Assembly (NCBI GenBank): GCA_964363695.1
Contig: CAYIJI010000001.1
Location: 1-33,942, forward strand
Reading direction: 5' to 3'
DNA length: 33,942 nt
Origin: an uncultured Candidatus Saccharibacteria bacterium
GTDB lineage: Bacteria; Patescibacteriota; UBA1384; XYA2-FULL-43-10; 1-14-0-10-43-13
Part shown: positions 20,790 through 21,731 of the stretch, in pieces
Layout of the letters: each line of letters opens with the position of its first letter
Numbering within the stretch: position 1 is the stretch's first letter
Translations under genes and position numbers: made by a program
The notes under the pieces: generated by a model
What the model saw: only the letters and a program-made list of their open reading frames with translations
What the model was told of the DNA's origin: nothing
Database searches by the model: none

Positions 20790-21731
20790 TCATTTCATTG
20801 CTTCGGCAGCGCCTGAAATCTCAGCGATTTCATTTGTGATCGAATTCTGCCTAATTGTGTTATATGTCAAAGTTAAATCGTCAATTAAGTTGCCTGCGTT
20901 ATCTGTGGCGTTTTTCATTGCAACCATTCTTGAAGAATGCTCAGAGGCGTTGGCTTCCAAAACTGCGCCGTAAATTTGCATTCTCATAAACCGGTACAAT
21001 AATTTTTCCAGTATTTCATCTGGATTTGGTTCGATTTTGTATTCTGGCTCATGAAGGGGGACTGTCCCCTCTGAGGTCTGGGGACTGTCCCCAGTTTCCC
21101 AAAGTTCTGGCAGGTCGATGTGATCTTTTTCTAATGGTAAAACTTGTTTAACAACCGGGATTTGTTTGAGTGAGGAAACAAAATGGGAGTAAATGATAAC
21201 CACCTTATCGTATGTTCCTTTTAAGTACTCGCCGTTCGACATTTTTGATATGGGGACAATGTCTTCGAGAGAAATATTGCTCTCCAATCCGTCAAAAGCA
21301 GCTATTAATTTCCCGATTTTATAACTGTTAATGAATTCAGCGCCTTTTTTGCCAACCGCAATAATATCACAGCAACCTCTATCGTGGATTCCCGCCTTCG
21401 CGGGAATGACATCGTTTTCTCTTGCAAACGATATTAGTTTCTTCAAGACATCTGAATTGTAAGCTCCGCAAAGACCACGGTCGGACGTTACGAAAATAAT
21501 TGCAATCTTCTTTGTTTCTCTGGGGACGAGAAGAGGATGATTTGCAGGCAATGTTAAATTGGCAAGCTTAAGAAGCATATTCCAAGAGTTTTGGACATAT
21601 GTTCTTGCCTCCATTATTGATTTGATTGATTTTTGCATCTTAACAGAGGCGACCATTTCCATCGCTTTGGTTATCTGTTTTGTGTTATTTACAGACTTTA
21701 TTCTTCTTCTGAACTCTTGCGTACTAGCCAT
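20790..21731 (-). CDS. atpG: F1 ATP synthase gamma subunit with in-frame repeat insertions
   Basis: N-terminal IKSVNNTKQITKAMEMVA and C-terminal ITNEIAEISGAAEAM. It also contains VIPAKAGIH (from 21386-21410) and GDSPQTSEGTVPL (two ggggactgtcccc palindromes at about 21058-21095). Confidence 0.9.
   Translation of the reverse strand: MASTQEFRRRIKSVNNTKQITKAMEMVASVKMQKSIKSIMEARTYVQNSWNMLLKLANLTLPANHPLLVPRETKKIAIIFVTSDRGLCGAYNSDVLKKLISFARENDVIPAKAGIHDRGCCDIIAVGKKGAEFINSYKIGKLIAAFDGLESNISLEDIVPISKMSNGEYLKGTYDKVVIIYSHFVSSLKQIPVVKQVLPLEKDHIDLPELWETGDSPQTSEGTVPLHEPEYKIEPNPDEILEKLLYRFMRMQIYGAVLEANASEHSSRMVAMKNATDNAGNLIDDLTLTYNTIRQNSITNEIAEISGAAEAMK
21386..21410. repeat. 25-mer ggattcccgccttcgcgggaatgac in frame inside atpG
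   Basis: Identical 25-mers occur in intergenic DNA at 21987-22011 and 24251-24275. Confidence 0.9.

Follow-up and report, generated by a model that had tools for sequence, protein, structure and literature searches.

How does the same short palindrome come to lie both between the genes of an ATP synthase operon and, in frame, inside one of them? The question arises in the first contig of an uncultured Candidatus Saccharibacteria bacterium (GCA_964363695.1, contig CAYIJI010000001.1), a stretch of 33,942 nucleotides (nt) that we analysed whole and call the window. The 25-mer GGATTCCCGCCTTCGCGGGAATGAC matches its plus strand exactly at 21386–21410, inside atpG, and at 21987–22011 and 24251–24275, giving the three identical copies, all within 2.9 kb, that a sequence-only reading of this DNA had noted. 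Variants with one or two mismatches lie at 9114, 11558 and 24775 (minus strand), and 100 dinucleotide-preserving shuffles yielded no match. Both intergenic exact copies belong to the atpBFHAGDC cluster: that at 21987 lies inside the 845-base-pair (bp) gap between atpG and atpA, and that at 24251 between atpA and atpH, 1 nt off the atpH stop. Here we assign the palindrome to CGTC-1, an already described family of repetitive extragenic palindromes (REPs), and argue that selfish hairpins of this family very probably colonised the genome, with in-frame copies in loops and linkers being tolerated and translated through.

The genome, of which the window is contig 1, comprises 920 kb in 66 contigs (39% G+C, 89.8% complete); because the assembly is fragmented at repeats, the copy numbers given here are lower bounds. 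Open reading frames (ORFs) are stop-to-stop frames combined with Pfam matches, not gene-caller output.

The palindrome as a CGTC-1 repeat

CGTC-tagged REPs were defined by Di Nocera, De Gregorio and Rocco (2013, BMC Genomics 14:522; PMC3733652) by a CGTC or TGTC tag (CCTC being allowed), stems of 8–9 bp that start with AT, loops of 4–5 nt and a CCA tail. Most form head-to-head (HH) dimers, that is, with the tags outside, and family CGTC-1 combines an 8-bp stem with a 4-nt loop. Genome-wide we found 27 exact copies of the 25-mer and 65 copies of the form GTCATYCCCGY-N4-RCGGGRAT, dispersed over about 40 contigs. All 65 carry a T/CGTC tag (TGTC in 60, CGTC in 5) and the 8-bp stem ATYCCCGY/RCGGGRAT, which begins with AT paired to the AT at the other end. 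The 4-nt loop is GAAG in 54 copies, GCAG in 8 and another sequence in 3; the tail is CCA in 58 and CTA in 7; and the tags point outward in all 22 close pairs. As every defining feature of CGTC-1 is present, we file the element in that family. Two stem positions vary, one between T–A (45 copies) and C–G (19) and the other between C–G (45) and T–A (19), each being paired in 64 of 65 copies; that they vary together indicates that the stem is maintained. Written as a single strand, the CGTC hairpin is TGTCATTCCCGCGAAGGCGGGAATCCAG.

Beyond CGTC-1 itself, about 120–180 hairpins in the genome share the foot GTCATYC...GRAT(CCAG) and differ in upper stem and loop, and the 9-mers GGGATGACA and GGAATGACA occur 231 times where about 12 occurrences would be expected. 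The distribution of CGTC-1 among 41 genomes of the order is patchy, with 62, 24, 34, 21 and 16 copies in five of them and none in 19. Named genomes from many phyla and groups also contain the exact 25-mer, in at least 120 contigs (Bacteroidota; Alpha-, Beta-, Gamma- and Deltaproteobacteria; Chloroflexota; Planctomycetota; Nitrospirales; Gemmatimonadota; Patescibacteria; and a Rickettsia endosymbiont), and identity between copies therefore cannot serve as a clock. A full-text literature search for the hairpin sequence found no paper, and we found no report of the CGTC REP family in Patescibacteria in the literature searched.

Some hairpins are accompanied by partial copies. One to three tandem half repeats, each made of the tag and the 5′ arm (TGTCATYCCCGC plus about 9 nt), precede 16 of 122 complete hairpins, for example at C14:7982, C57:1000, C42:8293 and C25:9799 of this genome. 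They occur on the tag side only (tail side, 0/122), are spaced with a 21-nt period in 16 of 22 steps, and within genes read VIPASSSVIPAKAGIQ or NDKTECGNDKSECGNDK.

Insertions in atpG, recG and other genes

The sequence-only reading placed the palindrome in frame inside atpG and a relative of it inside recG, and called these genes essential; this is an assumption, and housekeeping is the safer term. The host genes and their inserts are as follows.

20790..21731, minus strand: atpG, F1 gamma subunit, host gene (Pfam PF00231, ATP-synt, E 6.8e-87)
21383..21411, minus strand: CGTC-1 REP within atpG; tag TGTC, 8-bp stem ATTCCCGC/GCGGGAAT, loop GAAG, tail CCA
8530..10839, plus strand: recG, host gene (Pfam RecG_wedge, DEAD, Helicase_C, RecG_dom3_C)
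9067..9159, plus strand: recG insert, 93 nt or 31 codons; two related hairpins and the half repeat GCAGGGATGAC

The atpG copy is indeed read on the minus strand as VIPAKAGIH (GTC ATT CCC GCG AAG GCG GGA ATC CAC; AtpG residues 108–116), and the hairpin is followed by about 8 nt of a dimer spacer, CGATAGAG. We aligned AtpG with 25 genomes of the same order and 33 database relatives; the source names borne by AtpG relatives are Patescibacteria group and Candidatus Berkelbacteria. In these alignments the stretch between the helix end ...SF.K/R and the strand DIIAVGKKG is hypervariable: the loop is short or absent in some relatives (G004, P0006 and P0008), and in at least five it consists of other hairpin-type peptides (DSRVKPEND, LDPRVKPEDD, LDSSPTAQNDK). 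Alignment to E. coli gamma (3OAA) leaves 8 additional AtpG residues at the hairpin site. The extra segments had been expected to map to surface loops. For AtpG, an AlphaFold (AF2) model built from 34 sequences (mean predicted local distance difference test (pLDDT) score 76) places residues 106–120 in coil between helix 86–105 and strand 121–126, with pLDDT below 50 at residues 112–117; the RecG segment falls at a domain junction, described below.

The history of the atpG copy emerges from its closest relative, P0003, which comes from another sample and shares 86% nt identity over atpG. At the same codon P0003 carries a complete HH pair, GTCATTCCCACGAAAGCGGGAATCCAAGATAGT...CTGGATCCCCGGGTCAAGCCCGAGGATGAC, which reads VIPTKAGIQDSKGALDPRVKPEDD and yields the peptide VIPTKAGIQ...LDPRVKPEDD; its hairpin has a stem mismatch and an altered loop. 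An independent metagenome contig (L180) has the same element at the same atpG codon, and the window atpG retains the left hairpin and the initial spacer bases CCACGATAGA. The shared codon position in P0003 means that the insertion predates the divergence of the two lineages, and the proposal that perfect identity reflects recent spread finds no support for atpG. The right half of the pair appears to have been lost later, in frame. Neither terminal inverted repeats nor a target duplication surround the atpG copy. An apparent 4-bp duplication, CGAT, was rejected because the dimer spacer (AGATAGT in P0003 and other copies) opens with the second CGAT. The same pair with the spacer VIPAKAGIQKNTILDPRVKPEDD occurs in five unlinked genes, those for ValRS, LepA, AdoHcyase, a 5′–3′ exonuclease and a radical-SAM enzyme.

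Two further observations concern AtpG. In G001, a genome of the same genus, and about ten relatives (loci L002, L004 and L007–L011), the loop at residues 103–121 is a four-cysteine motif, E-C-x-C-x5-6-C-x6-C-D, which could be a metal or redox site and is replaced by the hairpin in the window genome and P0003. A second repeat-derived insert at 21040–21092 (minus strand), common to G001, contains GGGGACAGTCCCC twice, 10 nt apart, reads GDSPQTSEGTVP and falls in residues 205–234, the model's other region of low confidence.

The recG segment bears out the description of a relative of the 25-mer accompanied by a second hairpin. It consists, in order, of a CGTC-tagged hairpin with a 5-nt loop (CGTCATTCCCGATTTAGTCGGGAATCTA, 9067–9094), a spacer, an inverted CGTC-1 hairpin (GGATCCCCGCCTTCGCGGGGATGACA, 9114–9139) and the half repeat, and it translates as RHSRFSRESTNSDTILDPRLRGDDIGEGRDD without stop or frameshift. 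Where G001 reads ...TTA TTG / AAT GAA..., the window reads ...TTG CTA / 93 nt / AAT TGT.... The insert starts with CGTCAT and ends with ATGAC; it has no terminal repeats, and the bases at its flanks are not duplicated. Nothing is inserted at this site in G001 or in 20 of 23 other relatives. In G011 the same point holds a larger, hairpin-derived insert of independent origin. On T. maritima RecG (1GM5) the site maps between residues 295 and 297, at the junction of the wedge domain and the first helicase domain. Two more variable RecG sites hold hairpin peptides in other relatives, such as VIPAKAGIQ...SRIKSGMT in G024. By all indications, the recG insert is a lineage-specific pair plus half repeat.

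These two genes are not isolated cases. Requiring an ORF length of 150 codons or more and a flank of 30 or more codons either side of the hairpin, we found 26 CGTC-type hairpins in 18 ORFs. Twelve of these ORFs are Pfam-confirmed (RecG, AtpG, TsaD, ValRS, UvrC, 5′–3′ exonuclease, Mur ligase, RsmA/KsgA, LepA, Tgt, radical-SAM enzyme and AdoHcyase), and several of the Pfam domain matches are interrupted by the hairpin inserts. CGTC-1 leaves five of its six reading frames open, and 15 of its 65 copies are intragenic; nine of these 15 use the VIPAKAGI frame (binomial 8e-4, for a frame picked post hoc). Codon-level alignments with G001 show the gene-copy inserts to be whole codons, in line with the claim that the reading frame is kept, and comparison of hairpin-bearing ORFs with their G001 orthologues reveals many lineage-specific in-frame inserts in both genomes. 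At some sites, for example in KsgA, the two genomes differ in their set of hairpins. In the syntenic 36 kb of G001 (about 70–80% DNA identity), not one of the window's hairpin feet, roughly 20 in number, has a counterpart at the same position.

Taken together, the alignments show that the atpG and recG segments are in-frame, palindrome-derived insertions at hypervariable sites, that relatives have independently acquired other hairpins at the same AtpG and RecG sites, and that copies have turned over since the split from G001. Judging from the intact frames, the inserts are probably translated through as extra peptide, and the gene copies are presumably neutral or nearly neutral passengers.

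Two further genes of the window have hairpin-derived in-frame inserts, a class-V aminotransferase gene (1530–2978; insert 2339–2612) and the MiaA gene (15691–16785; insert 16120–16219). The Pfam matches of both are split, and the aminotransferase gene is about 204 nt longer than that of G001.

The remaining hairpins around the atp operon, where copies lie 1–10 nt past stop codons of this single operon, are listed below.

21824..21849, plus strand: CGTC-type hairpin in the atpG–atpA gap; 8-bp stem, 5-nt loop, TGTCATCCTGAATTTATTTCAGGATC
[quoted passage not shown]
24209..24276, no strand assigned: HH dimer between atpA and atpH; TGTCATCCTGAACTTGATTCAGGATCCAG, spacer and the exact CGTC-1 copy 24251–24275
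24774..24854, no strand assigned: HH dimer between atpH and atpF; two CGTC-1 variants with stems closed by T–A and with C–G at the second variable position
26785..26879, no strand assigned: related hairpin pair upstream of atpB, GTCATTCTGAA... / ...TCAGGATGACA, of the same kind as the pair in MITE type III

A scan of the window at Rfam gathering thresholds assigned no family to the hairpins and returned only tRNAs and a c-di-GMP riboswitch. The atpG–atpA gap (21732–22575) measures 845 bp here and 147 bp in G001; within it lie several hairpin elements, an array with an 8-nt period and, on the plus strand, a small ORF with a terminator-like hairpin behind it. A word of 8-nt period (TAAGCNNN) is arrayed in up to 7 units at 14407–14451, 15524–15592, 22332–22384 and 31562–31622, at several intergenic sites and in both orientations.

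The MITE form and the search for a mobilising enzyme

One pair of CGTC-1 hairpins in the window lies within a larger element.

11484..11595, no strand assigned: MITE of 112 bp with terminal inverted repeats GTAACCATTCACTG / CAGTGAATGATTAC and two CGTC-1 hairpins inside, as an HH dimer

It is flanked by an 8-bp target duplication, GATCTAAC, at 11476–11483 and 11596–11603, its site is empty in G001, and it folds with −48.1 kcal/mol (z −7.2). Genome-wide there are 29 full MITEs of 103–246 bp with 14-bp terminal inverted repeats, 18 of them with perfect 8-bp duplications of unrelated sequence. They divide into at least three types, which share their ends but differ in the hairpin pair enclosed. 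Several copies are fully or nearly identical, and some have an additional nested hairpin of about 40 nt. The exact terminal repeat GTAACCAYTCACTG is found 49 times in this genome, and none of 40 relatives has more than 4. A subset of the CGTC pairs in this genome therefore moves, or moved until recently, as a conventional MITE. We found no report of CGTC pairs as MITEs with target duplications in the literature searched; the one comparable case in PMC3733652 is that of H. neapolitanus dimers within 41-bp palindromes, with no duplication reported. One might go further and see in the tag-outward CGTC pair the core of an active MITE, with the naked and intragenic copies as its trimmed relics. We consider this doubtful. 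If it were true, a cut- or copy-and-paste transposase that makes 8-bp duplications, and not a Y1 enzyme of the REP-associated tyrosine transposase (RAYT) kind, would be the vehicle of CGTC REPs that has been missing since the 2013 paper.

A separate hairpin of about 39–45 nt, ..CATTCGA..CTCAGGCCCTGAG..TCGAATG.., is nested in the stems or loops of other hairpins and in MITEs (C39:4535–4698, C8:10123–10279 and C55:1986–2149 of this genome; 22510–22568 in the window), as if it inserted into both.

CGTC elements seem to have no dedicated transposase (PMC3733652), and our search for an autonomous partner of the MITE was negative. No pair of MITE ends at insertion-sequence distance was found in the genome, and neither were the IS256, ISL3, IS1595, IS66 or rve families. 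Contigs C54, C55 and C66 were rejected as carriers of a MITE partner, holding ordinary genes only, as was the one DDE_Tnp_1 fragment (C10:8132–8557), the ends of which are unrelated. That fragment lies in a decayed IS5-type element (C10:8100–9020; L221 about 1468–2389) whose DDE_Tnp_1 frame is split and whose inverted ends, GACYTCTTTCAAAACCCT, measure 18 bp; a 246-bp MITE lies 240 bp away. The Y1 genes that adjoin MITE ends in G013 and G024 lie outside the elements, and a metagenome scan with the 14-nt terminal repeat returned only single, probably chance, matches.

The genome has two RAYT-like Y1 transposase genes, C26:4923–5561 and C3:14996–15673 (L031 and L032), each bracketed by its own inverted palindromes (TTAGGGGACGGTTCTCT; AATGTACACCTCGTAGGTGTACATT with inverted loop), of which there are 9–11 genome copies each. 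A RAYT as mobiliser of CGTC-1 is thus not supported, both Y1_Tnp genes being flanked by palindromes of another kind. Across 41 relatives Y1 genes co-occur with CGTC-1 (19/22 versus 6/19; Fisher 4.6e-4, although the genomes are not independent), and a DDE control trends in the same direction (11/22 versus 3/19; p 0.046). Given the relatedness of the genomes, the trend of the DDE control and a counter-example in G001, we infer rather than observe the route by which naked copies arise.

Explanations and known systems

We consider it very probable that CGTC-1 is one subtype of a selfish hairpin-repeat superfamily that colonised this small, groundwater-type Patescibacteria genome. Its copies sit just past the ends of genes, between atp operon genes and within coding sequences; those surviving in genes would be multiples of three that avoid the one stop-containing frame, sit in disordered loops or inter-domain linkers and are simply translated. 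The atpG copy would descend from an old tag-outward pair, of which it is the left half; the right half would have been deleted in frame at a later time. Naked copies, which have neither inverted ends nor a duplication, may have arisen by a hairpin-directed single-strand route involving a Y1/HUH-type enzyme or, alternatively, by templated copying from other copies. Several findings weigh against this account: simple selfish spread does not explain an exact 25-mer identity across phyla; no transposase with the MITE terminal repeats was found in the 90%-complete assembly; and no enzyme is linked to the hairpin, both Y1_Tnp genes having other palindromes at their flanks and G001, with 24 CGTC-1 copies, giving no Y1 hit.

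A functional alternative would make the atp hairpins working RNA elements: the stem-loops behind atpH, atpF and atpA and within atpG would be 3′ decay barriers or processing sites that set unequal subunit amounts from a single transcript, in which case the atpG copy would be kept for its role and not merely tolerated. Their position close behind stop codons of a single operon fits this idea, as do the stability of the atpG hairpin as RNA (−13.7 kcal/mol, z −4.3), its perfect consensus despite an old insertion, and the literature (including PMC3733652), in which REPs are mostly located shortly after ORF ends and are suggested to act post-transcriptionally. Yet not one of these copies has a positional match in the syntenic operon of G001, the P0003 copy has a stem mismatch and a changed loop, identical elements sit in 17 other, unrelated ORFs, and zero changes in 25 nt are not unlikely at this divergence (estimate about 0.17), so we hold this explanation to be improbable. 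Somewhat less improbable, but still unlikely, is that, instead of being transposed, the naked copies, those in atpG and recG included, were templated by nearby copies through template switching or gene conversion as DNA was replicated or repaired, which would also hold neighbouring copies identical. The closeness of the three identical copies would suit it, as would the lack of target duplications and terminal repeats around the recG and atpG inserts, the different hairpin pairs between identical MITE ends and the tag-side half-repeat arrays, which resemble repeated local copying. Local copying does not readily account for a recG insert bounded exactly by tags, as a defined mobile unit would be, with no evident microhomology at its junction, or for the same pair and spacer in five unlinked genes.

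That short-read assembly of a repeat-rich bin spliced repeats into atpG and recG is very improbable. The assembly is fragmented, and many of its contigs end in these repeats; against this, both frames are intact with whole-codon inserts, the atpG element recurs at the same codon in an independent contig from a different sample, and in-frame inserts of this kind are also present in G001 (6 contigs) and other relatives. The idea that AtpG and RecG ordinarily contain these segments as conserved parts is refuted, as alignments with 25–33 relatives and solved structures are gapped at exactly these positions and the DNA is identical to intergenic repeats; the premise of the sequence-only reading that the segments are extra is sound.

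On this evidence, extra loops in core proteins of a candidate-phyla-radiation bacterium, among them the ATP synthase gamma subunit, RecG, TsaD, ValRS, LepA and Tgt, are mobile hairpins, probably translated, and not lineage-specific adaptations, which is relevant to annotation, structure prediction and claims about unusual Patescibacteria proteins. A small repeat-rich genome with filled and empty sites, a MITE form and two Y1 genes also offers a setting for the question of the mobiliser.

The Rickettsia palindromic elements (RPEs), said to have been described by Ogata et al. in 2000 and 2002, are likewise palindromic repeats that lie in frame in housekeeping genes of small genomes, are absent from orthologues and are read as extra peptides. 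The classic RPE-1 differs in that it is reportedly longer (100–150 bp) and is unrelated in sequence. A Rickettsia endosymbiont genome (L086) has 4 exact matches to the 25-mer itself within 8 kb. The parallel with Rickettsia that had been drawn from the sequence turns out to be stronger than claimed, since PMC3733652 equates CGTC-1 with Neisseria dRS3 and Rickettsia conorii RPE-6 (and CGTC-4 with RPE-4); kinship with RPE-6 rests on that equivalence and on the matches in the endosymbiont contig. Both the family and the in-gene phenomenon are thus already published, for Rickettsia and other bacteria.

With CGTC-1/dRS3 as described in PMC3733652, the element shares the tag, the AT-starting 8-bp stem, the 4-nt loop, the CCA tail and the HH dimers, as well as a position near ORF 3′ ends. 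That paper also reports CGTC copies within genes, many of them replication or repair genes, and here some lie in DNA-repair genes (uvrC, recG and the 5′–3′ exonuclease gene); in neither case is a transposase gene flanked by the repeat, two Y1_Tnp genes having been checked here. The differences are a high in-gene share (15/65) that includes ATP synthase, the presence of some dimers within MITEs that have terminal inverted repeats and 8-bp duplications, and a host phylum, Patescibacteria, outside that paper's five, which extends the CGTC REP family to a sixth phylum. REP/REPIN–RAYT systems (GTAG REPs with Y1 HUH transposases) resemble what we see in their short hairpins with an unpaired tag, their inverted pairs and their lack of target duplication, and the present genome has two RAYT-like Y1 genes, each with its own palindromes. 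The tag here, however, is T/CGTC and not GTAG, neither Y1 gene is flanked by CGTC-1, and G001 maintains its copies without a Y1 hit. The nearest published precedent that we found for the MITE form is QMITE2 of Coxiella burnetii (Wachter et al. 2018, PMC5896051), a MITE of 150–190 bp with terminal inverted repeats, 7–11-nt direct repeats and a GTAG REP, which also exists as shorter naked REP versions without terminal or direct repeats. Both systems thus combine a REP-carrying MITE with naked REPs, whereas the MITE here carries CGTC dimers, of which at least three kinds occur, between terminal repeats that read GTAACCAYTCACTG, and duplicates 8 bp of its target.

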